Shown piece by piece: positions 3,672 to 62,924 of a stretch of 64,000 bases of DNA. Under the pieces are notes generated by a model. The model had not been told where the DNA came from, did no database searches, and worked only from the letters and a program-made list of their open reading frames with translations. Position 1 is the first letter of the stretch. Each line of letters opens with the position of its first letter. The translations under genes and the position numbers were made by a program. Source of the DNA: an uncultured bacterium (GTDB taxonomy: Bacteria > Methylomirabilota > Methylomirabilia > Methylomirabilales > 2-02-FULL-66-22); assembly GCA_964576535.1 (NCBI GenBank), contig CAZNWB010000001.1, forward strand, positions 243 to 64,242, written 5' to 3'.

Positions 3672-3742
3672 ATCATCCTCCCCAGAGTGCTGGAACTCTT
3701 GTCCTCGTTCCTTGGGTCCCTGACACTGATCGCTGCACGCGT

Positions 3743-4987
3743 CTACGGCTTCTCCCCCAGGAAATCGCGGAGACGCGAGATGGCGCGCTCCACATCCAGG
3801 AGTCCGGGCACGAGCTTGTCCGCCGCCTCCGCGTGGGTGAGGGCGTCGCGGTAGCGCCCCTCGATGATGGCCTCGACGGCCTGATCCCAGACCCGCGTGA
3901 AGGGACTGTCGGAGGTCGGCGTCAGGCCGATCTGCCGCGCCATCGCCTGGATCGTGTCAATGGGAATCAGGAAGTTGAAGCCCTGGATGGCCTGGTCACC
4001 CTCCAGCGTCGTGGAGATGAATGTGGCCAATCCGATGACCTCGCCCCGCACGTTGAAGGCCGGGCCCCCGCTGTTGCCCCACGAGATGGCGGCGTCGGTC
4101 TGCAGGATCTGCCGCTCGTTCACGTCCTGCCGGAAGCTCGAGACCCGCCCGTAGGTCACCGTGGCCTCGGCCCGAGACTTCTTGCTAAGGAAATCGTGCC
4201 ACACGACCACGCCCGGATACCCGACGATGACGAGCTGCTGGCCGAAAAACACCAGCCGGATATTGGGCGCGAGGCGGACGGTGGGGAGGTTCGTCGCATC
4301 GATCTTGATGATGGCGGCATCCAGCATGGGCGGGTCCGGCTTGCTGCCATCCTTGGACAGCAGGTCGGGATCAATAGGCGGGCTGTAGGCCTTGACCACG
4401 GCGGGGTACCCCGTCCGGGCCGGGGCGCCGGGCGGCAGAACCGTGGGCAGGAAGACGTCCAGCTTCTTGGTGAGGCGGACCCCCTTCCGGTTCTCCGGAT
4501 CCTTGAGGATGGCCTCCATCCGGGCCTTGCGCCGCTTCTCGGGGAGCTTCGCCAGTCCCGGGCCGCAAGCGGCGTTTGCCGCCTGCTCCAGGAAGTCGGT
4601 GATGTGCTCCTGGTCGTCCTTGTACACGGGCTTGACCACGTGGCCGTTGGTGGCGATCCAGCCGTCGGGATGGATGATGGAGCCGGTCCCATTCTCGCGA
4701 TCCGCATCCGGCTTCACAACATAGACGTCGTTCTTCCCGCAGCGGACGGTCACCTCGGCCCCCACCTCCACGAGGATCCCCACCACCCCGGGGAGCACCC
4801 GGTTGATCCGGGCGGCCACGATCTCTTCCTGGCGCTCGCCGCTGGTCTCCCCCGCCGCCGCACAAAGGGGGAGGACCAGGACGCCGAGGAGTAGGCCGCA
4901 GGCAAGCAGGCAGCCGTGCCTATCCGCTTCGGGGTGGGACACGCGATGGCGCTCCCCACCTTTTCGAAGGATATCCCACCGGACCAT
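3743..4987 (-). CDS. trypsin-like serine protease (S1C/DegP-like protease domain)
   Basis: Triad context is present (TNGHVV, DAAIIKID, GNSGGPAF). The real start is an ATG at 4987 behind GGAGGAGG. The 530-aa ORF in the track is an upstream extension. Confidence 0.8.
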   Translation of the reverse strand: MVRWDILRKGGERHRVSHPEADRHGCLLACGLLLGVLVLPLCAAAGETSGERQEEIVAARINRVLPGVVGILVEVGAEVTVRCGKNDVYVVKPDADRENGTGSIIHPDGWIATNGHVVKPVYKDDQEHITDFLEQAANAACGPGLAKLPEKRRKARMEAILKDPENRKGVRLTKKLDVFLPTVLPPGAPARTGYPAVVKAYSPPIDPDLLSKDGSKPDPPMLDAAIIKIDATNLPTVRLAPNIRLVFFGQQLVIVGYPGVVVWHDFLSKKSRAEATVTYGRVSSFRQDVNERQILQTDAAISWGNSGGPAFNVRGEVIGLATFISTTLEGDQAIQGFNFLIPIDTIQAMARQIGLTPTSDSPFTRVWDQAVEAIIEGRYRDALTHAEAADKLVPGLLDVERAISRLRDFLGEKP

Positions 4988-8945: not shown

Positions 8946-9863
8946 CTACATGATCCGGCGCTTATGGACAACCTCGGCGATCCGGCGGATGTGGGCCGGT
9001 GTGCTGCCGCAGCAGGCGCCGACAATGTTCGCTCCAGCATTCAGGATGGCCGGATATCCGGCGGCCATCTCCTCCGGGGGCAATTCGTAGATCGTCCGGC
9101 CCCCCACAATGCGAGGCAGTCCCGCATTGGGATAGGCGATCAGCAGGCCGTCGCTTACACCGCGCATTCCCCGAAGGATGGCCGCGGCCCGCTCGGGTCC
9201 CCCGTCCCCGCAATTGCATCCCACCACGTCCGCCCCGGCCTCAAAGAGAACCTTGGCCGACTCTTCCGGGCTGGTTCCCCACATCGTCCGGTCCCGGCGC
9301 TGCTCTTGCTCCCATTGGAAGAACATGGTGCACATCACCGGGAGGCCCGTGCTTTCCTTGGCGGCGCGGATCGCTACTACGGCCTCCTCTGGGTACATCA
9401 TCGTCTCGACCGCGAACAGGTCCACCCCGCCCTCGGCCAGGGCCAGCACCTGCTCACGAAAGTTGGCGTAGAACTCCTCCTCGCTCACGTCGCCCAACGG
9501 TTCGAAGGCATCGGGCAGGTGCCCCGTGGGGCCGATGGAACCCGCCACGTACTTGCCGGGAGGGCACGCGCTCCGCGCCAGCTTTGCCCCCAGGACGTTC
9601 AGCTCCCGCGTCCGGTCGGCGAGACCGTATGCGGTAAGCTTGAGCCGGGTGCCCCCGAAGGTGTTCGTCTCGACGAAATCGCTCCCCGCCTCGAAGTACG
9701 CCTTGTGGATGTTCCGGACCACGTCGGCGCGGGTGTCGTTCCACAGCTCCGGGCAGGCCCCGTCCGTGAGGCCTGCCTCGAAGAGCATGGTGCCCATCGC
9801 CCCGTCGAAGATGAGGATTTCTGATCTCAGCCGCTCCAGAAACTCCTTCCCCCGAGGCTGCAT
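8946..9863 (-). CDS. homocysteine S-methyltransferase domain protein (MetH N-terminal module-like)
   Basis: The zinc-ligand contexts GCNCG and GACCGS are present, along with the family N-terminus LIFDGAMGTML. The track start at 9869 is a GTG. An ATG at 9863 sits a better distance from GAGGTGG. Confidence 0.8.
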   Translation of the reverse strand: MQPRGKEFLERLRSEILIFDGAMGTMLFEAGLTDGACPELWNDTRADVVRNIHKAYFEAGSDFVETNTFGGTRLKLTAYGLADRTRELNVLGAKLARSACPPGKYVAGSIGPTGHLPDAFEPLGDVSEEEFYANFREQVLALAEGGVDLFAVETMMYPEEAVVAIRAAKESTGLPVMCTMFFQWEQEQRRDRTMWGTSPEESAKVLFEAGADVVGCNCGDGGPERAAAILRGMRGVSDGLLIAYPNAGLPRIVGGRTIYELPPEEMAAGYPAILNAGANIVGACCGSTPAHIRRIAEVVHKRRIM

Positions 9864-9990
9864 CCTCACGCCACCTCAATTCAAAATTTTCTCGCGAAGA
9901 CGCCAAGGGCGCTAAGGGGGGTAGTCCTTTTTCACCCTCGTGTGCGTTCTTTGCGTCTTTGCGAGAGAATGGTTTTTCATTGAGCGCCGA

Positions 9991-10671
9991 TTACGGCTTG
10001 TCGTTTTTCCTCACCAGGGCCTTGGCCTTGACCACGGCCGCGGTCGACTCCCTGGCGTAGCCGTCCCCGCCGATCTCGTCGCAGAAGGCCTGGTTGACCG
10101 GGGCGCCGCCCACCATCACCTTGACCCGATCACGAAGCCCGTCCCGCATCAGGGCCTCGATGGTTCGCCGCATGGCCGGCATCGTCGTCGTCATCAGGGC
10201 GGAGATGCCTACGATGCTGGCGTCTTTTTCTTTGACGGCCTCCACGAACTTTTCGGGCGCCACGTCCCGCCCCAGGTTGTGCACCGTGAAGCCGGCTCCC
10301 TCCAGCATCATCGCCACCAGATTCTTGCCGATGTCGTGCAGGTCCCCCTGGGCGGTTCCGATCACCACGGTGCCCAGGTGATCGTCCACGGCCGTCTTGG
10401 TCAGGAGTGGCTTCAGCAGGTCCAGGCCGGCATACATCGCCCGGGCCGACAGCAGGACCTGCGGGACGTAGTACTCGTTCCGGCGGAACTTTTCCCCGAC
10501 CACGTCCATGCCTGGGATGAGTCCCTTGAAGATGATGGTCTTGGGCTCGATTCCCTCGTCCAGGGCCCGCCGGGTCATCTCTCCTACCACAATGTGGTGC
10601 CCCAGGATAATGGCCCTCGCCATGGCCGGGTAGTTGAATGTCTCGTGTCCCACTCTATCCTTTCCAATCAA
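9991..10671 (-). CDS. corrinoid (cobalamin)-binding protein, B12-binding_2 + B12-binding domains
   Basis: The DxHxxG motif is present (GDLHDIGKNLV), followed by a Rossmann-like B12 domain. The start is uncertain: the track start is a TTG, and GTG/ATG alternatives lie downstream. Confidence 0.8.
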   Translation of the reverse strand: MIGKDRVGHETFNYPAMARAIILGHHIVVGEMTRRALDEGIEPKTIIFKGLIPGMDVVGEKFRRNEYYVPQVLLSARAMYAGLDLLKPLLTKTAVDDHLGTVVIGTAQGDLHDIGKNLVAMMLEGAGFTVHNLGRDVAPEKFVEAVKEKDASIVGISALMTTTMPAMRRTIEALMRDGLRDRVKVMVGGAPVNQAFCDEIGGDGYARESTAAVVKAKALVRKNDKP

Positions 10672-55720: not shown

Positions 55721-56017
55721 TTACGCCCCGTTTCGATCGCCAGTTCCTCCGGCGATCGCCGGCACTATTGACACCTGATCACCGGCCTTCAGGGGTGTCG
55801 CCTGCCCCTGCAGGAAGCGGATGTCTTCCTCGTTCACGTAGATATTGATGAACCGACGGATGTTCCCATCCGCCTCGCACAGGCGGGCTCTGATCCCCGC
55901 ATAGTCCTGCTCCAGGCGGTCGATCAGCTCCTTGACCGTCGCCGCCTCGGCCTTCAGCTCGCCCTGCCCTTTCGTCACTGCCCGCAGCGGGGTGGGAACG
56001 CGCACGAGAACGCTCAT
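55721..56017 (-). CDS. MoaD/ThiS/CysO-like ubiquitin-fold sulfur carrier with a 7-residue extension after the GG motif
   Basis: The sequence reads ...INIYVNEEDIRFLQGQATPLKAGDQVSIVPAIAGG-TGDRNGA-stop. I prefer the ATG at 56017. The GTG at 56023 is the track start. Confidence 0.8.
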   Translation of the reverse strand: MSVLVRVPTPLRAVTKGQGELKAEAATVKELIDRLEQDYAGIRARLCEADGNIRRFINIYVNEEDIRFLQGQATPLKAGDQVSIVPAIAGGTGDRNGA

Positions 56018-56086
56018 ACTCACATGCCCCCTGTGATTGAAACGTGATGGGTGCCTGACTGCCGTATCCGACCAACCGCCAACGGC

Positions 56087-57358
56087 TCAGGCGCGCCGGG
56101 CGGTCGGGCCCTCCCCGTTCAGCGAGGGGTGCTGGGCCAGCGCCTCGTCAAAGGACGCCAGGGTCGGCTGGATGCCGGTCGGCGCCCGCAGCGCGCCGCC
56201 CAGCGCCTCCTGCGTCTTCAGCCCGTGGCCGGTCACCGAGATCACGGTGACGTCGTCCCGGCCGATCACCCCCTGCTGCGCCAGCTTGCGCGTGGCAGCC
56301 ACGGTGACGCCGCCCGCCGTTTCCGCGAAGATCCCCTCGGTGGCGGCGAGCATCTTCATGGCTTCCACGATCTCGTCGTCCGTGGCGTGCTCCCCGGCCC
56401 CACCGCTCTCCTTGACCACCTTGTAGGCATAGTACCCGTCGGCCGGGTTGCCGATGGCCAGGGACTTGGCGATGGTCCGGGGTTGCTTGACCGGGCGGAT
56501 GATCTCGCTCCCGGCCTTCACCGATGTCACGATGGGCCCGCACCCGGCCGCCTGCGCCACGTGCATCCGCGTGGCAACGGCCGGCAGCAGCCCCAGCTTG
56601 TAGAACTCCTGCAGGCCCTTCCAGACCTTCGTGATCAGGGAGCCGCCGGCGGCCGGCACGATGATGTGGTCGGGCGCCCGCCAGCCCAATTGCTCGGCGA
56701 TCTCGTAACCGAAGGTCTTGGACCCTTCGGCATAATATGGGCGAATATTGATGTTGACGAAGGCCCAGCCGTACTTGTCGGCGACCTCGCTGCACAGCCG
56801 GTTCACCTCGTCGTACGTCCCATCCACCGCCACCACGTTGGGGGCATAGATGGAGGTCCCCAGGACCTTGCCCTGCTCCAGGTCGGCCGGGATGAACACG
56901 AAGCTGGTGAGGCCCCCCTCGGCGGCGTGGGCGGCCACCGAGTTCGCCAGGTTCCCTGTGGAGGCGCAGGCGACTACCGGGAACCCGAACTCCAGCGCCC
57001 GGATCACCGCCACCGCGACCACCCGGTCCTTGAAGGACAGCGTCGGGTGATTGACCGTGTCGTTCTTGACGTAGAGGTTGCTGAGTCCCAGGGCCTTCCC
57101 CAGGTTCCGGGCCCGGACCAGCGGGGTCAGGCCGCAATGCCGCCCCACCGTCACCTCGCCGTCGATGGGAAGCAGCGCCCGGTAGCGCCACATGTTGGGA
57201 GGGCCGGCCTCGATGGCGCGGTGGGTCAGTACCCGCCCGATGCCTGCGTAATCGTAATCCACCTCCAGCGGACCGAAACAGAACTCGCACACGTGAAGCG
57301 GCTTGGCCGGATAGGGTCGGGCGCACTCCCGGCACTTCAGGCCAATCACATATCCCAT
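56087..57358 (-). CDS. threonine-synthase-family PLP enzyme with N-terminal zinc ribbon (MetM-like candidate homocysteine synthase)
   Basis: The zinc ribbon is LKCRECARPYPAKPLHVCEFCFGPLEV and the PLP-lysine context is HPTLSFKDRV. The gene sits inside a SAM-riboswitch-controlled unit next to a MoaD-like gene. The start is an ATG at 57358, with an alternative at 57409. Confidence 0.75.
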   Translation of the reverse strand: MGYVIGLKCRECARPYPAKPLHVCEFCFGPLEVDYDYAGIGRVLTHRAIEAGPPNMWRYRALLPIDGEVTVGRHCGLTPLVRARNLGKALGLSNLYVKNDTVNHPTLSFKDRVVAVAVIRALEFGFPVVACASTGNLANSVAAHAAEGGLTSFVFIPADLEQGKVLGTSIYAPNVVAVDGTYDEVNRLCSEVADKYGWAFVNINIRPYYAEGSKTFGYEIAEQLGWRAPDHIIVPAAGGSLITKVWKGLQEFYKLGLLPAVATRMHVAQAAGCGPIVTSVKAGSEIIRPVKQPRTIAKSLAIGNPADGYYAYKVVKESGGAGEHATDDEIVEAMKMLAATEGIFAETAGGVTVAATRKLAQQGVIGRDDVTVISVTGHGLKTQEALGGALRAPTGIQPTLASFDEALAQHPSLNGEGPTARRA

Positions 57359-57405
57359 CGAGCCATTGCCTCCCGCGGAACCCCGCCGTGGATGGTGAGG
57401 TGATG

Positions 57406-57648
57406 TCACGCAGTTGCCCCGGGGGTGCCGATCGGCCTGACCTTGACCCCCAGGCGGGTCAGGTGCTCAATGCCGCGCTTCAGGTCGTCCTCCGCCCCGG
57501 TGAAATCCAGCGTGGCCTCTCCCGACGCCTCCGTGACCCGGGCCTTGCGGATGTTCGGCACCAGACGGTATGTCTTGGACACGGTGTAGATCAGCGGCTC
57601 ACGCACCAGGTCCGGCGGAAAGATCAACAACAGGCGCAGGGTGGCCAT
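57406..57648 (-). CDS. free-standing NIL-domain protein (about 80 aa), first gene after the SAM riboswitch
   Basis: MATLRLLLIFPPDLVREPLIYTVSKTYRLVPNIRKARVTEASGEATLDFTGAEDDLKRGIEHLTRLGVKV follows the NIL (MetN C-terminal) pattern. The start is an ATG at 57648. Confidence 0.7.
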   Translation of the reverse strand: MATLRLLLIFPPDLVREPLIYTVSKTYRLVPNIRKARVTEASGEATLDFTGAEDDLKRGIEHLTRLGVKVRPIGTPGATA

Positions 57649-57663
57649 GGGGTTTCCCCGGGC

Positions 57664-57698
57664 AAAGAAAAAGCCCCCTCTCGATCCTGAGAAGGGGC
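57664..57698 (-). terminator. intrinsic terminator (expression platform of the SAM-I riboswitch)
   Basis: In the minus-strand RNA, GCCCCUUCUC-AGGAUC-GAGAGGGGGC forms a 10-bp stem with one G-U pair. It is followed by UUUUUCUUU and lies 16 nt upstream of the NIL start codon. Confidence 0.8.
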
Positions 57699-57724
57699 TC
57701 ACGAAAATTCCCGTCAGCCGCCTT

Positions 57725-57824
57725 CTCATCTTTCCCCGCCGAAGGCGGGGCAGGAGTTGGCACCCCGCGTCTCGCGGGGTTGCCGTGGCTTCGTAGGGCC
57801 AGTCCCTCAGCCACTCGGGATGAG
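57725..57824 (-). promoter_or_regulatory. SAM-I (S-box) riboswitch aptamer
   Basis: The minus strand reads CUCAUCCCGAGUGGCUGAGGGACUGGCCCUACGAAGCCACGGCAACC[CCGCGAGACGCGG]GGUGCCAACUCCUGC[CCCGCCUUCGGCGGGG]AAAGAUGAG. It matches the S-box consensus block by block: CUUAUCAAGAG-GG-GGAGGGACUGGCCC-AUGAA-CC-GGCAACC...GGUGC-AA-UCC-GC...AAAGAUAAG. Confidence 0.9.
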
Positions 57825-57839
57825 TCAGCGTTGCGGCGG

Positions 57840-57868
57840 ATTTAAGCAGAGCCAGGTAGTGGTGTCAA
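57840..57868 (-). promoter_or_regulatory. candidate sigma70-type promoter driving the riboswitch leader
   Basis: On the minus strand: TTGACA (57868-57863), a 17-nt spacer, then TTAAAT (57845-57840). The aptamer P1 starts about 15 nt downstream. Confidence 0.6.
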
Positions 57869-57879
57869 GCAAAAAGACG

Positions 57880-58122
57880 CTATCCCGCCACCACGTCCTG
57901 CTCGATGGGGGCGACGATCACGCCCCGCTCCTCCAGCCAGTGAAGGGCATCCGCCAGTTTCCGGTTCTCTCCCTCCAGTTCGAGCATGATCCAGCCGATT
58001 CCCTCCTCCAGGTCGGCCTGGCGGATGTTGAAGACCAGGTCGAATTGCTGGCTCATCGTCCAGATGGCTGGTTCGTCCGCCAGTTGCCCCTGGAAGGTCA
58101 GGTGTACCCGTCGCTTGCCCAT
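57880..58122 (-). CDS. free-standing NIL-domain protein (about 80 aa), last gene of the upstream cysteine module
   Basis: MGKRRVHLTFQGQLADEPAIWTMSQQFDLVFNIRQADLEEGIGWIMLELEGENRKLADALHWLEERGVIV follows the NIL pattern. The start is an ATG at 58122, and the track start is a GTG at 58134. Confidence 0.65.
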   Translation of the reverse strand: MGKRRVHLTFQGQLADEPAIWTMSQQFDLVFNIRQADLEEGIGWIMLELEGENRKLADALHWLEERGVIVAPIEQDVVAG

Positions 58123-58283
58123 GAACCGCCCCACTCAGTGCTTGATTTCATAAACCCGTGACCGCCTCAACCATACCCCAAGAATGTCGCAGACGTAAAG
58201 CCCCTTCTGCTTTCCGGGACCCGGTGAAACTCGAAGGGGAGGCAACCTGAGGCAGGCTGAGGCGGCGATCTGGGGACGATCCG

Positions 58284-58808
58284 TCAGGCCGCCGGCAGGC
58301 TGGCCGGAACCTCGGCGAAGTCCCCACGGACACCGTCCCAGACGTAGTAACGGGCGTCCACGGCCCGGCCAGTGCGGACGGAAACCACCAGGTAGTTGGC
58401 GCCGGGCCAGAGGGGTTCTGAGTCGGCCCGGAGGGCCCGATCCCGATCCATCAGGGAAAAGTAGGCGTCGTGATCCGGGTGAGAGTGGTAGAAGGTCACG
58501 ACATCCCACCCCGCATCGTCCGCCTCGCGGAGCACGCGCAGCACCTCCCGGTCATCCATCCGGTAGGCGGTCCGCGCATCCCGCTCGAATCCCGCGGGAT
58601 CCCGCTGGCGGTCCTGATTGGCGATGTTGCGCACCTGGCGGACCTGGTAGGTCTCGGGCTTCCCCGGCTTGCCGATGACGATCCCGCAGATCTCCTCCGG
58701 GTATCCCGCCTCGGCCTGCCGGACGATCTCGGCCATCTGGATCGCCTGCAAGGGATAGACGGCCGCCATCCGCTCCCCCGTCGTGGTCATCTCCCTCTCG
58801 GTTCGCAT
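58284..58808 (-). CDS. JAMM/MPN+ metalloprotease (Mec/HcyD-like)
   Basis: The motif ExnHxHx7Sx2D is complete (PEEICGIVIG ... HSHPDHDAYFSLMD). The start could be any of three ATGs (58808, 58790, 58769). Confidence 0.85.
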   Translation of the reverse strand: MRTEREMTTTGERMAAVYPLQAIQMAEIVRQAEAGYPEEICGIVIGKPGKPETYQVRQVRNIANQDRQRDPAGFERDARTAYRMDDREVLRVLREADDAGWDVVTFYHSHPDHDAYFSLMDRDRALRADSEPLWPGANYLVVSVRTGRAVDARYYVWDGVRGDFAEVPASLPAA

Positions 58809-59013
58809 CTTCTCACCCGAGGCCCATCCCGTTGGATTTCGGATTGTGGATCACCCAGGGGGTACCCGATTTCGGATTGGTCAAATTCGAAATTCGAAAT
58901 TGGGGTCAGGTCCCGGTGTCTCGGCTCTGGGCTCTCGGCCCGCATTTATCACACGGGGCCCCGTCCCGACCTCCACCTCCCTCGTCGGCGGCGGTCGGGT
59001 CCCTCCCCGGGGG

Positions 59014-59946
59014 CTACCACCAGATATGACTCTGGACGTTCTCCCCCAGGTTCGGGATCTCCTTGAACCAGACGCCAAGGCTCACGTACTTCCATCCACC
59101 ATCGCAGAGCACGCAGACGATCGTGCCCTTCTCCATCCGGTGGGCCACCCGGATGGCGCAGTGAATGACGGCGCCCGAGGAGATACCGGCGAAGATGGCT
59201 TCCTTCGTGGTCAGATCCTTGGTGGCAGCGAAGGCGCACCGGCTGTCCACGATGATCTTCCCATCCAGCAGGCTAGTATCCAGGATCGGCGGGATGAAGC
59301 CCTCCTCCAGGCTCCGCAGTCCCTGCACCAGATCTCCCGGATGGGGTTCCACGGCCACGACCCGGATCTTGGGATTGTATTCCTTCAGGCGCCGGGCGCA
59401 CCCCATGAGGGTCCCCCCGGTCCCCAGGCCCGCCACCAGCACGTCCACCTCGGGACAGTCGCGGATGATCTCGGCCGCCGTCGTCTCGTAGTGCGCCAGG
59501 GGATTGGCCGGATTCCCGTACTGGTATGGCATGTAGTACCGCGGGTCCGCCGCCAGCTGCTGCGCCAGCTTGATGGAGCCGTTGGTGCCCTGGTTCCCAT
59601 CCGAGTAGACGATCTCCGCGCCGAACAGTTCCAGGAGCTGTCTCCGTTCCACGGTCACGTTGTCCGGCACCACGACTTTGACCTTGTACCCCTTCAGCCG
59701 CGCCACCATGGCCAGCGCGATCCCGGTGTTCCCGCTGGTCGGCTCGAGGATGACCTTGTCCGGCGTGAGGTCGCCGCTCCGCTCGGCCGCCTCGATCATG
59801 TACATGGCGATGCGATCCTTCAGGCTGCCGGTGGGGTTGTTCCCCTCCAGCTTGGCGTAGATCCGGACCGTCGGTTTCGGGCTGATCCGGCGGAGCTCAA
59901 CCAGCGGGGTGTTCCCGATGGCCTCCAGGATGCTGGCCGCTTTCAT
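59014..59946 (-). CDS. cysM: CysM-type cysteine synthase (O-phosphoserine / protein-thiocarboxylate-dependent type)
   Basis: The PLP-lysine context is NPTGSLKDR. The strings [36 protein letters not shown] and YQYGNPANP and the aromatic C-terminal tail (...HIWW) closely resemble my recollection of mycobacterial CysM. Confidence 0.8.
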   Translation of the reverse strand: MKAASILEAIGNTPLVELRRISPKPTVRIYAKLEGNNPTGSLKDRIAMYMIEAAERSGDLTPDKVILEPTSGNTGIALAMVARLKGYKVKVVVPDNVTVERRQLLELFGAEIVYSDGNQGTNGSIKLAQQLAADPRYYMPYQYGNPANPLAHYETTAAEIIRDCPEVDVLVAGLGTGGTLMGCARRLKEYNPKIRVVAVEPHPGDLVQGLRSLEEGFIPPILDTSLLDGKIIVDSRCAFAATKDLTTKEAIFAGISSGAVIHCAIRVAHRMEKGTIVCVLCDGGWKYVSLGVWFKEIPNLGENVQSHIWW

Positions 59947-60053
59947 GGATGCAACTCCACCCTGGAGCTCTTCATGCGCCTGCGGAATATCCGGGGCACC
60001 TCAAGGCAAATTGCCATTCTCTCCCCTTCGACTACGGGACCGGTCACACTCGA

Positions 60054-60143
60054 AGCCGTTCGGTTGTTCGGTGGTTCGTTGGTTCGGTGGTTCCCTTCTG
60101 AGACGAACAACCGAACCACCGAACAGTCGAACCCCCGAACGCC
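60054..60143. repeat. CGAAC/GTTCG-unit palindromic intercistronic element, copy E
   Basis: The sequence is AGCCGTTCGGTTGTTCGGTGGTTCGTTGGTTCGGTGGTTCC-CTTCTGAGAC-GAACAACCGAACCACCGAACAGTCGAACCCCCGAACGCC. It lies between the Ubl-E1 stop and the cysM start. Confidence 0.85.
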
Positions 60144-60149
60144 TTTTCC

Positions 60150-61241
60150 TCAGGTCGGGCGTGCCGACTGTGGGACGCCGCAGAATTCCTGGTAGTCGAT
60201 GAGGTCCGTGATCGTCGGGTGATCCCCGCACACCGGACAGGTGGGATCCCGGCGGATTTTCACCTGCCGGAACTCCATGCCCAAAGCGTCGAAGAACATC
60301 AGGCGGCCCACCAGGGATTCGCCCAGGCCCAGGAGCAGCTTGATCGTCTCGATGCCCTGGATGGAGGCCACGACACCGCACAGGACGCCGAAGACCCCCG
60401 CCTCCTGGCAGCTCGGCACGAGTCCCGGGGGCGGGGGAGCCGGATACAGGCAGCGGTAGCAGCCCTTCCCGGGCACGAACACCGTGACCTGCCCCTCGAA
60501 CTTGAAGATACTTCCGTCCACCATGGGCTTGTTCAGGAAAAAACAGGCGTCATTCGCCAGGTAGCGCGTCGGGAAGTTGTCGCAGCCATTCACGATCACG
60601 TCGTACTCGGCGAAGATCTGCTTCACGTTCTCCGAGGTCAGGGCCTGGTTGTATGGAACCACCTTCACGTCTGGATTGAGGTCGGCGATGGTCTCCACCG
60701 CCGACTGCACCTTGGGCCGCCCGATGTCGTGGACGTGGTGCAGGATCTGCCGCTGCAGGTTGCTGAGATCCACCACGTCGAAATCCACGATGCCCAGGGT
60801 GCCGACCCCGGCCGCCGCCAGGTACAGTGCCGCCGGCGAGCCGAGCCCGCCCGCCCCGATCAGCAGGACCTTGCTGTTCAGGAGCTTTCGCTGGCCCATG
60901 CCCCCGACCTCGGGGAGGATGATGTGCCGGCTGTACCGCCGGATCTGCTCCTCGGTGAAGCTCAGCGCCCCACCCACCATGGCGGGAATCACCGCCACCT
61001 GATCCCCGTCCCGCAGCGGCGTCTGCATGCCTTGCAGGTCGTCCACCGGCTCATCGTTCACGTAGATGTTCAGGTGCCGGTAGATCTTCCCCTCCGAGTC
61101 CAGGATGCGATCCCGCAGCCCCGGAAACCGCCCCTCCAGCGCCCGGACCAGGGCCAGGACATCGTTCTCCTGGACCTCCACCCGCGAGGCATTGTCGGTG
61201 TACTTGCGGTATGGGGTGGGGATATATACGGTCACAGCCAT
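60150..61241 (-). CDS. fusion protein: MoaD/CysO-like ubiquitin-fold domain (res 1-91, ending GG) + MoeB/ThiF-type E1 adenylyltransferase
   Basis: The junction reads ...LNIYVNDEPVDDLQGMQTPLRDGDQVAVIPAMVGG-A-LSFTEEQIRRYSRHIILPEVGGMGQRKLLNSKVLLIGAGGLGSP.... The E1 zinc motifs are CYRC and CPVC. There is no rhodanese domain. The ORF is continuous and has an AAGGAGGAGG RBS. Confidence 0.8.
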   Translation of the reverse strand: MAVTVYIPTPYRKYTDNASRVEVQENDVLALVRALEGRFPGLRDRILDSEGKIYRHLNIYVNDEPVDDLQGMQTPLRDGDQVAVIPAMVGGALSFTEEQIRRYSRHIILPEVGGMGQRKLLNSKVLLIGAGGLGSPAALYLAAAGVGTLGIVDFDVVDLSNLQRQILHHVHDIGRPKVQSAVETIADLNPDVKVVPYNQALTSENVKQIFAEYDVIVNGCDNFPTRYLANDACFFLNKPMVDGSIFKFEGQVTVFVPGKGCYRCLYPAPPPPGLVPSCQEAGVFGVLCGVVASIQGIETIKLLLGLGESLVGRLMFFDALGMEFRQVKIRRDPTCPVCGDHPTITDLIDYQEFCGVPQSARPT

Positions 61242-61495
61242 CGTCCTCCTCCTTGAGCACCCACCAGAGCCATCAGGACAGGAAGCACTCGCAATATTGC
61301 ATCGCCATGATCACCCAGTCCGCCAGAGGCGGACGCTGGGTACCCGGGTCGCCAAGAAACCACTACTTCCTCAAAGAGACCGGCAGGTTGCCAGTGTTCC
61401 GGTGCGCCCGTTTCAGGACTGCTCTTTCTTTCGGCGTCAGCCCTTTCGACCCATGGCGTTCTTGGCGCCTTGGCGGTTGAAATTCCGGACCCGGG

Positions 61496-62440
61496 CTAGA
61501 TCGCCATGCTGAGATAGCGCTCGCCTGTATCGGGCAGCATGGTGACCACCGTCTTCCCCACGCCCAGCCGCTCCGCCACGCGGAGGGCCGCCACCACGTT
61601 GGCCCCCGAGGACACGCCCACCAGCAGGCCCTCCTCCCGCGAGAGGCGCCGGGTCATGGCCAAGGCCTCCTCGTCGCGAACCCCGATGACCTCGTCGTAG
61701 ATCTCCCGGTTCAGGACGCCGGGGACGAAGCTGGCGCCGATCCCCTGGATCGCGTGCGGCCGGAATTTGCCCCCCTGCAAGACCGGCGCGCGCGCCGGCT
61801 CCACCGCCACCACCAGGACGCCCGGCCGCTCGCGCTTGAGCACCTCCCCCACACCGGTGATGGTGCCCCCCGTCCCCACGCCGGCCACGAAGGCGTCCAC
61901 CTGGCCGTCGGTAGCCTTCAGGATCTCCTGGGCGGTCGTCCGGCGGTGGATCTCGGGATTCGCCGGATTCACAAACTGCTGAGGCATGAAGAATCCCGGG
62001 TGTTCCCGCACCAGCTCCTCGGCCGCAAACACGGCGCCGGTCATTCCCTCCACCGCCGGGGTCAGCGCCAGCTCCGCCCCAAACCGCTGGAGGAGCGCGC
62101 GGCGCTCCAGGCTCATATCCTCGGGCATAGTCAGGATCAGGCGGTAGCCCTTGACCGCCGCCACCATGGCCAAGCCGATGCCGGTGTTGCCCGACGTCGG
62201 CTCGACGATCGTATCGCCGGGCTTCAGCCGGCCCTCGCGCTCCGCCTCCTCCACCATGGCGAGGGCGATCCGATCCTTGACGCTCCCCCCAGGGTTGAGT
62301 GACTCAAGCTTCCCGAACACCGCGGCCCACCCCGGCTTCACCAGCCGGCGCAGGCGGACCAACGGGGTGTCCCCGATCAGGTCCAGTGCGCTGGAAACCA
62401 GCCGTGTCACGCAGGCCTCTTCGCGGAATCCGGTCCGCAT
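61496..62440 (-). CDS. cysK: cysteine synthase A-type PLP enzyme
   Basis: The N-terminal region is [10 protein letters not shown]...NPGGSVKDR, and [10 protein letters not shown] is present. The start is an ATG at 62440, or a GTG at 62410. The 389-aa track ORF overlaps the Rrf2 gene and is an extension. Confidence 0.85.
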
Positions 62441-62477
62441 CCGTCCGATCGCCCGATCGCCCCGCCATCGGCTGGGG

Positions 62478-62924
62478 TCAGATCTGATACGTGATCCGCT
62501 CCTTGGTTCTGGTCCGGATCCGCTCGCAGATGTCCTGGAGCGTCGTGTGATCCACGATGGCCGAGACCGCATCCCGCACGTCGGCCCAGGTATCGCGCAG
62601 GGTGCAGAAGCTTTCCTGCGAGCAATGCTCCCGCGGGCTCTCCGAGACGCAGAAGATGGGCGCAATGGGTCCGTCCACGGCGCGGAGGATTTGCCCCAGG
62701 GTGATCTCCCGTGGCGGCTTGGCCAGGTAATAGCCGCCCTTGACGCCCCGCTTGCTGGCCAGGAACCCGGCTCGCTTCAGGATGAGGAGGAGCTGCTCCA
62801 GATACCTGGCAGGAAGGGCCTGACGTTGTGCGATGGCCTCGATCGGAACCGGCCCCTCCTCGTACCGCATCGCCAAGTCTTGCAAAGCCCGAGTGGCGTA
62901 GTCGCCTTTTGTCGAGATCCTCAT
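62478..62924 (-). CDS. Rrf2 family transcriptional regulator with three-Cys cluster motif
   Basis: The N-terminus is [14 protein letters not shown] and the wHTH is [30 protein letters not shown]. The Cys motif is [16 protein letters not shown] (Cx8Cx5C). Confidence 0.85.

Follow-up and report, generated by a model that had tools for sequence, protein, structure and literature searches.

The locus lies on the minus strand of the window, by which we mean the whole 64,000-nt stretch of DNA that was analysed. A leader with a SAM-I (S-box) riboswitch is followed by three genes, which encode a stand-alone NIL protein (NIL_B), a PLP enzyme of the threonine synthase (ThrC) family and a small sulfur carrier. 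Given the results below, we refer to the latter two as MetM-like and MetO-like. All four elements were found at the positions and on the strand given by the preliminary description, and its claim of an S-box ahead of a three-gene unit is borne out by the aptamer score of 90.9 bits (RF00162) and by a terminator belonging to the riboswitch. The features are compiled in Table 1.

Table 1. Features of the riboswitch-controlled operon and of the cluster upstream of it, sorted by position within the window.
Feature	Position	Strand	Evidence
MetO-like sulfur carrier, 98 aa, beta-grasp ThiS/MoaD fold	55721..56017	-	PF02597
MetM-like ThrC-family PLP enzyme, 423 aa, N-terminal Zn ribbon	56087..57358	-	domain matches, clade, signature residues
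NIL_B, stand-alone NIL, 80 aa, first gene behind the riboswitch	57406..57648	-	PF09383, E 4.3e-10
Expression platform, intrinsic terminator	57663..57700	-	terminator scan and MFE fold
SAM-I (S-box) riboswitch aptamer	57723..57826	-	Rfam RF00162
Putative promoter, TTGACA-17 nt-TTAAAT	57840..57868	-	read by eye
NIL_A, second stand-alone NIL, 80 aa, last gene of the upstream cluster	57880..58122	-	PF09383, E 5.5e-17
JAMM/Mec-type metalloprotease (Prok-JAB), motif HSHPDHDAYFSLMD	58284..58808	-	PF14464, E 5e-21
CysM-type cysteine synthase	59014..59946	-	TIGR01136 cysKM, 349 bits, above cut-off
MoaD/CysO-like carrier fused via ...MVGG to ThiF/MoeB E1 adenylyltransferase	60150..61241	-	PF02597 and PF00899
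CysK-type cysteine synthase	61496..62665	-	TIGR01139 cysK, 444 bits vs cut-off 351; Pfam PALP

The aptamer is the only Rfam match within the window. It covers the full length of the model (E 2.2e-20) and exceeds the gathering score of 44.4, such that its assignment to SAM-I is based on this score and on the presence of an expression platform, with SAM binding being predicted. The MFE fold of the riboswitch leader has a z-score of -4.7. Its terminator stem (57700-57671) comprises 12 bp, 7 of them GC pairs, and is followed by the T-run TTTTCTTT. The motif GAGAAGG from the 3' strand of P1 is complementary to CCTTCTC, which lies in the terminator's 5' arm, and pairing of the two could form an antiterminator. 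About 14 nt 5' of the aptamer start, the hexamers TTGACA and TTAAAT constitute the probable promoter of the riboswitch-controlled operon, which the consensus scan missed on account of the T at position 2 of the -10 hexamer. Between the NIL_B, ThrC-family and carrier genes, the terminator scan reported no terminator.

For the MetM-like enzyme, we preferred the start ATG 57358 over 57361 because its homologues are 423 aa long and because of its ribosome binding site GGGAGG. Thus, the ThrC-family gene with SFKDR and CxxC ribbon stands as it had been described, while its length is corrected from 424 to 423 aa. The protein matches the PALP family with an E-value of 1.1e-67, carries the PLP lysine within SFKDR and has an N-terminal CxxC...CxxC ribbon, which also gives rise to a weak NinF match. 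A longer 107-aa ORF for NIL_B, which starts inside the aptamer, was dropped; the homologues have 80 aa. The carrier gene begins 69 nt past the enzyme gene, with ATG 56017 as the most likely start, and belongs to the ThiS/MoaD family (PF02597, E 5e-18). Its product is 52% identical to MetO of Nonomuraea, and the nearest solved structures are those of CysO (4n6e_B, 3dwg_C). The C-terminus reads AIAGG-TGDRNGA, i.e., Gly-Gly is followed by a tail of 7 residues, and the carrier therefore requires processing. Residues beyond Gly-Gly are found in 98 of 128 carriers, a pattern that, on the sequence level, fits obligatory JAMM processing.

Further upstream on the same strand, we observed genes that were absent from the preliminary description, namely those for CysK, a MoaD-ThiF fusion, CysM, a JAB protein and a second NIL. 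The E1 fusion matches MoeB/MoeZ models with E-values from 1e-117 to 1e-123 and is, unlike MoeZ, devoid of a rhodanese domain. E1 and JAMM genes are both located at most 4 kb upstream of the operon, and the JAMM protease is predicted to trim carrier C-termini and to free the product. The true start of CysK is probably internal to its ORF, since PALP begins at residue 95 only. Orthologues of NIL_A occupy the same position in the loci L001 and L087-L120, and in L003 a position after ATP sulfurylase.

Judged from its sequence, the window enzyme does not belong to the orthodox threonine synthases. Its Nonomuraea homologue, the locus of which is arranged as SAM riboswitch, enzyme and carrier, shares 54% identity with it, compared to 35% for an orthodox ThrC (the paralogue from locus L013). 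With respect to the best solved ThrC, the window enzyme scores 204 bits vs 518 bits for that genuine paralogue. The phylogenetic check suggested by the preliminary description gives a consistent picture, i.e., within a neighbour-joining tree the group made up of the window protein, 82 homologues from the loci and 2 actinobacterial ones is separated from the orthodox ThrCs in 30/30 bootstraps, which places the window protein outside the clade of solved ThrCs, with the actinobacterial proteins standing in for MetM. The MetM-like clade has an unstable outer boundary, which is identical in 1/30 bootstraps, with 51 database representatives at intermediate positions of the tree. MetM orthology was assessed via the Nonomuraea and Micromonospora homologues as proxies for MetM of Streptomyces albulus and via published identities. 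The homologue searches were single-pass phmmer runs; the protein search aimed at the Streptomyces locus yielded Micromonosporaceae only, and the Nonomuraea chromosome locus was found via tblastn on a plasmid collection. A cyanobacterial homologue is 51.6% identical to S. albulus MetM (PMC12172450), and the parallel figure for ThrC of B. subtilis is 33% (bioRxiv 10.64898/2026.09.15.751699).

The comparison of MetM-like and ThrC proteins revealed 41 clade-specific differences, which are composed of 33 residue substitutions and the MetM-only positions of the N-terminal ribbon. Among them are T88L, S155N, N157R, R160Y, Q164S and N191L (T. thermophilus ThrC numbering), and the signature N-[IV]-N-[IL]-R-P-[YF]-Y replaces N-S-[IV]-N-P-x-R. 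The GNAGN loop is altered in the MetM-like clade as well; its residues and those at T88/S155/R160 are conserved to at least 90% inside each clade. We take T88, S155, R160 and N188 to be the phosphate/active-site residues of ThrC (T. thermophilus numbering; cf. Omi et al. 2003, Murakawa et al. 2011), and at 88, 155 and 160 the window enzyme carries L, N and Y instead. The identity values (35% vs 54%), the stable separation in the tree and the replaced phosphate-site residues therefore fit the homocysteine pathway of the MetM/MetO type. The enzyme is accordingly predicted, from such sequence features, to be a homocysteine synthase that depends on O-phosphohomoserine and MetO thiocarboxylate. Cysteate synthase or another ThrC-like paralogue was considered as well and ruled out, as TIGR03844 reaches 61 bits vs a cut-off of 325.

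Searches with the enzyme recovered 80 loci; of these, about 68 have a MetO-like gene nearby and about 50 a NIL, either stand-alone or fused. SAM-I riboswitches precede enzyme homologues in at least 4 phyla, and are found in NC10, Actinomycetota (L084, L085), Methylacidiphilaceae (L079) and further lineages. The clade together with the carrier was seen in Nitrospirota, Nitrospinota, Aquificota, Chloroflexota, Planctomycetota, NC10, Verrucomicrobiota (Methylacidiphilales) and others. The reach of the MetM/MetO pathway is thereby extended from Streptomyces (2024) to many phyla, including lineages such as Aquifex; Aquifex-like lineages had been noted for the lack of any known homocysteine pathway (PMC5764234). 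In addition, the MetM-like signature could be used to fix threonine-synthase annotations as well as false predictions of methionine auxotrophy.

Two alternative readings of the enzyme have to be weighed. A true threonine synthase function of the 423-aa protein, with S-box and neighbours either coincidental or serving to control the partitioning of O-phosphohomoserine, is in our view very improbable. The protein does pass the thrC model TIGR00260 with 277 bits (cut-off 167), but the model is non-discriminating since it also accepts the Nonomuraea MetM-like protein with 270 bits. Likewise, its close homologues all carry the annotation threonine synthase, yet GapMind reports MetM to be frequently misannotated as ThrC (10.1101/2024.10.14.618325). 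For the cyanobacterial homologue, weak activity as threonine synthase and as deaminase was reported in vitro (PMC12172450). Beside the low identity to orthodox ThrC and the replacement of residues 88, 155, 160 and 191, it speaks against this reading that 10 Nitrospirota loci encode a separate orthodox ThrC paralogue in the same cluster and that the enzyme is recurrently linked to sulfur carrier, E1, JAMM protease and SAM riboswitches. It is also improbable, to a lesser degree, that the enzyme, as a ThrC paralogue catalysing gamma-replacement, uses free sulfide or another nucleophile or forms a product other than homocysteine, such that the carrier serves CysM only. For CysM, a carrier is already fused to the E1, which, being rhodanese-less, has no defined sulfur source, and in Micromonospora the enzyme is found behind a SAM riboswitch without an adjacent carrier. 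However, a dedicated second carrier accompanies the enzyme in most of the recovered loci and is within the window part of the riboswitch unit, SAM control indicates the methionine branch, and the S. albulus enzyme uses MetO-COSH, as relayed in bioRxiv 10.1101/2024.10.14.618325.

The three genes, that of NIL_B included, thus probably make up an operon of the MetM/MetO type for homocysteine (methionine) biosynthesis, repressed by SAM, in a bacterium with kinship to NC10/Methylomirabilota. As far as sequence goes, the MetM/MetO-like pair behind an S-box that had been suggested initially is supported by the clade of the enzyme, the CysO-like carrier and the upstream E1 and JAMM genes. The pathway as such is already published (MetM/MetO; Hasebe et al. 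2024, Appl Environ Microbiol 90:e01247-24, as cited in PMC12172450 and bioRxiv 10.1101/2024.10.14.618325), and NIL would be its sole new component. The steps of the pathway can be modelled on the CysO/CysM/Mec and MetM/MetO systems, which are homologous. With ample SAM, the aptamer would fold and the terminator would form, such that transcription halts ahead of NIL_B; with little SAM, NIL_B, MetM and MetO would be produced. The JAMM protease encoded upstream would then cut off the 7-residue tail of MetO and expose Gly-Gly, which would be adenylated by the upstream E1 and turned into a thiocarboxylate. MetM, i.e., a ThrC paralogue with remodelled phosphate site, would remove the phosphate from O-phosphohomoserine and add the thiocarboxylate sulfur of MetO at C-gamma, and not water at C-beta. 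Homocysteine would finally be freed, if needed after JAMM has hydrolysed an adduct of MetO and homocysteine. NIL, probably as a dimer, may provide protein-level feedback on this carrier cycle and, where fused, may double as a C-terminal carrier cap that can be cleaved off.

NIL is a dedicated, widespread partner of the carrier machinery. MetM, MetO, E1, JAB or CysM are found beside it in 77 of 80 NIL-anchored metagenome loci, a scan that used a narrow NIL_B-type alignment and is thus biased to the PNIR[RK]A[RK]V subtype. Direct MetO-GlyGly-NIL fusions occur in 11 loci (10 from genomes, 1 from a metagenome). NIL adjoins MetO or E1 more often than MetM, and there are E1-JAB-MetO-NIL clusters without MetM in view. 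No NIL was found within about 5 kb at the two actinobacterial loci examined, and NIL is therefore not essential to the chemistry. The preliminary description knew of no role for it in this setting; this agrees with a literature search on 'NIL domain', which found none in the carrier/MetM context within a coverage that does not extend to Hasebe et al. 2024.

The NIL proteins of the loci have 75-85 aa. NIL_B shows no fusion to an ABC-transporter ATPase, no cysteine and no 4Fe-4S ferredoxin domain. Its AF2 model (pLDDT 90.6) has a ferredoxin-like beta-alpha-beta-beta-alpha-beta fold, for which C2 domains of MetN are the best structural matches (TM 0.86 and rmsd of about 1 Å to 3tui). In the fold search, the top 11 matches are without exception NIL/C2 domains from methionine ABC transporters of the MetN type, followed by ACT-type regulatory domains, while a sequence search of NIL against the PDB gave zero matches. 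Asn32 (within Asn32-Ile-Arg) is aligned with Asn295 of MetN and is an Asn in 147 of 155 NIL domains (95%); the Ala that corresponds to the MetN interface residue A299 is conserved, too. The Arg at position 34 is missing from MetN and 97% conserved in NIL. In MetN, N295 touches the bound L-Met and binding is lost by the mutation N295A (PMC6233128). Since both the fold and this key Asn match MetN C2, we infer, tentatively and from the model, that NIL binds methionine or homocysteine and may be an accessory subunit that senses them. A function as persulfide carrier or rhodanese substitute was rejected, given the missing cysteine and the occurrence of rhodanese-less E1s both with and without NIL.

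How such an accessory protein would act can be read in several ways. It is possible, though no more than a tentative proposal, that NIL gates the ubiquitin-like carrier cycle as a methionine/homocysteine switch that derives from, or is common to, the MetNI importer. In that case, a NIL dimer, which might pair NIL_A with NIL_B, would block activation, maturation or delivery of MetO once it has bound the end product; a fused NIL would be a cleavable pro-domain, so that JAMM processing of the carrier would be the regulated step. A structural role is likewise conceivable, if doubtful, i.e., NIL could be an adaptor or chaperone that docks or shields the C-terminus or thiocarboxylate of MetO, that aids recognition by E1 or JAMM, or that is just co-translated as a stoichiometric partner. 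The position of fused NILs straight after Gly-Gly, the preference for MetO and E1 neighbours as well as the clusters without visible MetM favour such a role, for which Arg34 could bind the carboxylate or thiocarboxylate. On the other hand, the residues shared with MetN (Asn295, Ala299) belong to its ligand and dimer interface (PMC6233128), the next-nearest folds are ACT-type and thus regulatory, and no cysteine is available in NIL. Hardly any credence is given to the idea that NIL is left over from, or related to, the NIL-ferredoxin subunit known from the DUF39 (MA1821/MA1822) homocysteine pathway and takes part in reductive sulfur chemistry. The homologue P0225 carries the JGI label 'L-aspartate semialdehyde sulfurtransferase ferredoxin', and Desulfovibrio and Methanosarcina need NIL/ferredoxin proteins to make homocysteine (PMC5764234), but the NILs found here, with their 75-85 aa, have neither a ferredoxin domain nor a cysteine, and a DUF39 gene was not noticed at the loci in an unsystematic look.

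If NIL does act as a methionine/homocysteine switch, the same logic would account for the so far unexplained NIL domain in the homocysteine pathway of the DUF39/MA1822 type. NIL ties together the MetNI importer, this pathway and MetM/MetO. The MetO-GlyGly-NIL fusions can be seen as a prokaryotic counterpart of ubiquitin-fusion precursors and offer ready constructs to study JAMM processing and NIL function.

Compared to MetM/MetO of S. albulus, where a SAM riboswitch is located upstream of metM (PMC12172450), the window shows the same succession of riboswitch, ThrC homologue and MoaD/CysO-like carrier. Dependence on a MoeZ-type E1 and a JAMM protease (Mec) would be common to both, in accordance with the GapMind pathway steps MetO, Mec, MoeZ and MetM (10.1101/2024.10.14.618325). 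Actinobacterial homologues of the same layout share 54% (enzyme) and 52% (carrier) identity with the window. In contrast to MetM/MetO, the window has NIL as first cistron and a second NIL just upstream, both being absent from the two actinobacterial loci; its E1 is rhodanese-less and fused to a carrier of its own, and the operon abuts a cysK/cysM/mec cluster.

With the CysO-CysM-Mec-MoeZ system of M. tuberculosis, the window shares the closeness of its carrier to CysO, the genes for CysM, JAMM and E1 directly upstream, and the principle that sulfur passes from the thiocarboxylate of a carrier to a PLP enzyme whose substrate is a phosphorylated amino acid. It differs in that the acceptor enzyme is of the ThrC family with homocysteine as predicted product, that its carriers have C-terminal tails or fusions, and that NIL is present. 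A thiocarboxylate methionine pathway, HcyS-HcyD-HcyF-MetY, was reportedly described for Wolinella succinogenes by Krishnamoorthy and Begley in 2011. It is said to use the sulfur of a protein thiocarboxylate for homocysteine as well and to remove residues after Gly-Gly by a JAMM protease, but, unlike the window, to rely on O-acetylhomoserine and a MetY-type enzyme of fold type I. We know of no NIL in that system.

The C2 (NIL) domain of the MetNI importer and the window NIL belong to the same Pfam family and fold, with the equivalents of N295 and A299 conserved. Unlike MetN C2, NILs of the window type are stand-alone with 80 aa or fused after the carrier, come without ABC ATPase and feature the subfamily-specific Arg (N-I-R), with ligand binding being predicted from the likeness to MetN. 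Finally, MA1822 (PMC5764234) resembles the window in that a NIL domain was recruited to homocysteine biosynthesis. There, NIL is joined by a 4Fe-4S ferredoxin domain and a DUF39 partner, both of which the window NIL does without, and the window pathway would instead run via O-phosphohomoserine and the thiocarboxylate of the carrier.

The three genes of the operon, i.e., the first stand-alone NIL gene behind the riboswitch (NIL_B), a ThrC-family PLP enzyme and a ThiS/MoaD-type carrier, follow an aptamer and an intrinsic terminator, and the terminator scan predicted no terminators between them. The aptamer, the only Rfam element across the 64-kb window, bears out the S-box claim of the preliminary description, with its score far above gathering and a terminator ahead of NIL_B. 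Folded to minimum free energy, the leader contains the aptamer helices together with the terminator hairpin (z = -4.7). Reading the sequence, we find the P1 3' strand GAGAAGG complementary to CCTTCTC, the 5' arm of the terminator. In the usual S-box design, an antiterminator competes with the terminator. Given this complementarity and layout, the sequence implies that SAM would turn operon transcription off. For the enzyme, the SFKDR motif with the PLP lysine and the CxxC...CxxC ribbon noted before were recovered, while its start had to be moved one codon downstream. Nearest relatives of the window enzyme and NIL (89-97% identity) belong to candidate division NC10/Methylomirabilota.

Features of the window and of homologous loci (L numbers, from genome or metagenome scans)
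Feature	Location	Strand	Evidence or remark
Near-consensus promoter (TTGACA, 17 nt, TTAAAT)	57868-57840	-	by eye; not called by consensus scan
SAM-I (S-box) aptamer, full-length	57826-57723	-	Rfam, 90.9 bits, gathering score 44.4, E 2.2e-20
Intrinsic terminator, 12-bp GC-rich hairpin and run TTTTCTTT	57700-57663	-	terminator scan
NIL_B, 80 aa	57648-57406	-	first gene behind riboswitch
ThrC-family PLP enzyme, 423 aa	57358-56087	-	RBS GGGAGG
ThiS/MoaD carrier, 98 aa	56017-55721	-	ending AIAGG-TGDRNGA
CysK	upstream cluster	-	TIGR01139, 444 bits
MoaD-like domain joined via ...MVGG to ThiF/MoeB E1	upstream cluster	-	without rhodanese domain
CysM	upstream cluster	-	
JAMM/Prok-JAB protease	upstream cluster	-	motif HxHx7Sx2D
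NIL_A	upstream cluster	-	second stand-alone NIL protein
MNT (nucleotidyltransferase)	55550-55224	-	toxin-antitoxin pair immediately downstream of carrier gene
HepT (HEPN RNase)	55227-54889	-	pair with MNT; unrelated to operon
Homocysteine S-methyltransferase domain gene	8946-9869	-	
B12-binding domain protein	9991-10671	-	
MetO-NIL fusions	L017 7278-7793, L019 6334-6906, L021 7291-7806, L027 3020-3535, L030 7300-7818, L040 7276-7791, L042 7614-8147, L060 6336-6851, L076 3326-3856, L018 3041-3474 (cut), L145 from 566		
Orthodox ThrC paralogue	L013, L014, L020, L022, L023, L024, L026, L029, L031, L037		

The genome-collection scan seeded with the enzyme, whose search pattern is the MetM signature itself, returned at least 80 loci with 57-68% identity from many phyla (Nitrospirota, Nitrospinota, Aquificota, Chloroflexota, Planctomycetota, Elusimicrobiota, Poribacteria, Methylacidiphilales and others). 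At least ten Nitrospirota loci, largely Thermodesulfovibrionia, have within the same cluster another ThrC-family gene (about 360 aa), which lies downstream of the MetM-like one at a distance of about 1.8-2.0 kb (order MetM-like, MetO, NIL, ThrC); the L013 copy reaches 518 bits with Aquifex ThrC 2zsj and shares 35% identity with the window enzyme. Both paralogues thus coexist side by side, i.e., these loci encode two predicted O-phosphohomoserine-consuming enzymes.

We also computed a neighbour-joining (distance) tree of 176 sequences with 30 bootstraps. Its MetM-like core consists of the window enzyme, 82 homologues from the loci and two from actinobacteria, the latter standing in for S. albulus MetM, and the ThrC clade (four solved ThrCs and the ten paralogues) falls outside this core in 30/30 bootstraps. 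That is, the phylogeny proposed earlier as a check, with the actinobacterial homologues as MetM references, places the window enzyme apart from solved ThrCs. The outer edge of the MetM-like clade, amid unnamed database representatives, is unstable in the bootstraps. About 50 Zn-ribbon ThrC-family representatives (e.g., P0253, P0256, P0267, P0303-P0389) lie between both clades, some with an RP[YF]Y signature and others with NPY[TQ]. Solved structures include no MetM, and the window enzyme finds its best solved relatives among genuine ThrCs, with a score of only 204 bits. The clades differ at 41 alignment positions, each at least 90% conserved within its own clade: 33 are residue substitutions (including, in T. 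thermophilus ThrC numbering, T88->L, S155->N, N157->R, R160->Y, Q164->S and N191->L), and the remainder lies in an N-terminal ribbon absent from orthodox ThrCs. Several substituted residues presumably grip the substrate phosphate in ThrC, which reportedly uses this phosphate to steer water to C-beta. The motif N-[IV]-N-[IL]-R-P-[YF]-Y-x-[ED]-G-S of the MetM-like clade contrasts with N-S-[IV]-N-P-x-R-[IL]-[ED]-G-Q in ThrC.

Directly upstream, five same-strand genes (57880-62665, minus strand) for CysK, the MoaD-E1 fusion, CysM, the JAMM protease and NIL_A form a predicted CysO/CysM/Mec-type cysteine module, which probably also provides the E1 and protease required by a second carrier. The E1 fusion brings along a carrier domain at its N-terminus, with GG at the end of that domain, and lacks a rhodanese domain. 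In the position of the window CysM, L001 (8945-9445; also L002) encodes 166 aa that match neither Pfam nor NCBIfam; L001 comes from a 5.6-Mb NC10-type genome and has an Rrf2 regulator gene ahead of its cluster. In L003, toxin-antitoxin-like genes (DUF4258, MqsA-like) lie between its two NIL genes. Elsewhere in the window, the gene pair at 8946-10671 resembles a split MetH-like methionine synthase, which might carry out the step that follows homocysteine formation.

Gene neighbourhoods associate NIL with the carrier/MetM machinery, and our confidence in this association is high. Locus ORFs come from mechanical calling, and their families from one phmmer pass that started from the window proteins. 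Among the matches listed, about 40 of the 80 enzyme-anchored loci have a NIL gene inside the cluster, usually as MetM-MetO-NIL, as MetM-NIL-MetO in Chloroflexota and as NIL-MetM-MetO in NC10. No NIL was found within about 5 kb at two actinobacterial loci (L084, L085). An independent metagenome-contig scan, seeded only with NIL_B-type sequences and biased towards this one subtype, yielded at least 80 loci; MetM, MetO, E1, JAB or CysM lies beside NIL in 77/80 among the matches listed, and the remaining three have NIL either at the end of a contig or on a short one. The order NIL_A, SAM riboswitch, NIL_B, MetM, MetO recurs in a lineage with NIL only about 55% identical, where Rfam likewise finds the riboswitch with a NIL gene on either side. 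MetM-MetO-E1-NIL and E1-JAB-MetO-NIL are further frequent layouts. At L164, E1-JAB-MetO-NIL is followed by a HomK-type cofactor-independent phosphoglycerate-mutase-like protein (3677-4900; PF10143 and Metalloenzyme); the HomK/ThrB2 (PF10143) family is reported to form O-phosphohomoserine, the predicted MetM substrate (GapMind 2026). In L003 (183-2469), genes for PAPS reductase and ATP sulfurylase are immediately followed by a NIL_A-type gene, an arrangement that ties this subtype to sulfate assimilation in addition to the carrier clusters.

In at least ten enzyme-anchored loci, counted beyond the about 40 with a NIL gene, a single protein combines the MetO Gly-Gly, a short linker and NIL (e.g., ...IIPAIAGG-AKSSKK-RVTLVFPQNL...), and one more such fusion stems from the NIL-anchored metagenome scan. 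These proteins of about 171-190 aa occur in Planctomycetia, Thermodesulfobacteriota, Sumerlaeota, Acidulodesulfobacterium and other lineages. Such fusions show that NIL in all probability acts close to MetO. They also entail that NIL would have to come off, i.e., a JAMM protease would remove it and free the carrier C-terminus before carrier activation. At least one residue follows Gly-Gly in 98/128 carriers of the loci listed, which is consistent with obligatory processing. In MetO of the NC10-type loci L092, L095, L097, L099 and L103, the first Gly-Gly is followed by a degenerate repeat of the C-terminal motif (e.g., ...AIAGG-ADNGRGVPSIAGGR), and the window MetO tail TGDRNGA (55721-55744) looks like a shortened form of this repeat.

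The AlphaFold2 model of NIL (beta-alpha-beta-beta-alpha-beta, pLDDT 90.6) has as its 11 best PDB matches exclusively NIL/C2 domains of MetN-type methionine ABC-transporter ATPases (3tui: TM 0.86, rmsd 1.0-1.1 A), with ACT-type regulatory domains ranking next. Transport by MetNI is inhibited when its C2 dimer interface takes up two L-methionine molecules; MetN N295 touches the ligand, binding is lost in N295A, and A299 is part of the interface strand (PMC6233128; PMC10710835). Aligned to E. coli MetN, N295 and A299 correspond to the Asn and Ala of the NIL motif N-I-R-x-A, which are conserved in 95% and 99% of 155 unique NIL domains (Arg 97%). NIL_A and NIL_B contain no cysteine, which rules out a persulfide or Fe-S role. 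Given fold match, conserved Asn/Ala and missing cysteines, we favour, with moderate to low confidence, that NIL may be a ligand-sensing accessory subunit for methionine or homocysteine acting on the carrier cycle. An adaptor or chaperone is a serious alternative, in which the Arg specific to this subfamily could hold on to a carboxylate or thiocarboxylate; the MetN-like Asn and Ala point to the sensor. In line with the preliminary description, no role of NIL in the MetM/MetO context was found in the literature searched, with Hasebe et al. 2024 outside this search; neither a 2006 survey of ThiS/MoaD-E1-JAB neighbourhoods nor the GapMind preprint (bioRxiv 10.1101/2024.10.14.618325) mentions NIL.

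The MetM/MetO pathway itself is known from Streptomyces albulus (Hasebe et al. 2024, as summarised in PMC12172450 and bioRxiv 10.1101/2024.10.14.618325). According to both, the ThrC homologue MetM forms homocysteine from O-phosphohomoserine and thiocarboxylated MetO; the preprint adds that it requires MoeZ and Mec and is frequently misannotated as ThrC, and PMC12172450 that the S. albulus MetM gene sits behind a SAM riboswitch. Identity to this MetM is 51.6% for a cyanobacterial homologue (PMC12172450) and 33% for B. subtilis ThrC (bioRxiv 10.64898/2026.09.15.751699). SAM-I riboswitches directly precede the enzyme homologue in Micromonospora (L084, 69 bits) and Nonomuraea (L085, 68.7 bits; order SAM-I, enzyme, carrier) and also occur ahead of homologues in Methylacidiphilaceae (L079) and several other lineages; they are absent from the Nitrospira, Nitrospina, Aquificae and Chloroflexota loci tested. 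Window and Nonomuraea enzymes are 54% and the carriers 52% identical, and the nearest solved relatives of the window carrier are the CysO proteins 4n6e_B and 3dwg_C. With the same SAM-I layout, these identities sustain the MetM/MetO-like pair suggested before, and we conclude from sequence comparison that enzyme and carrier of the window are a MetM/MetO pair with presumably the same chemistry. Riboswitch, MetM and MetO belong to an already known system.
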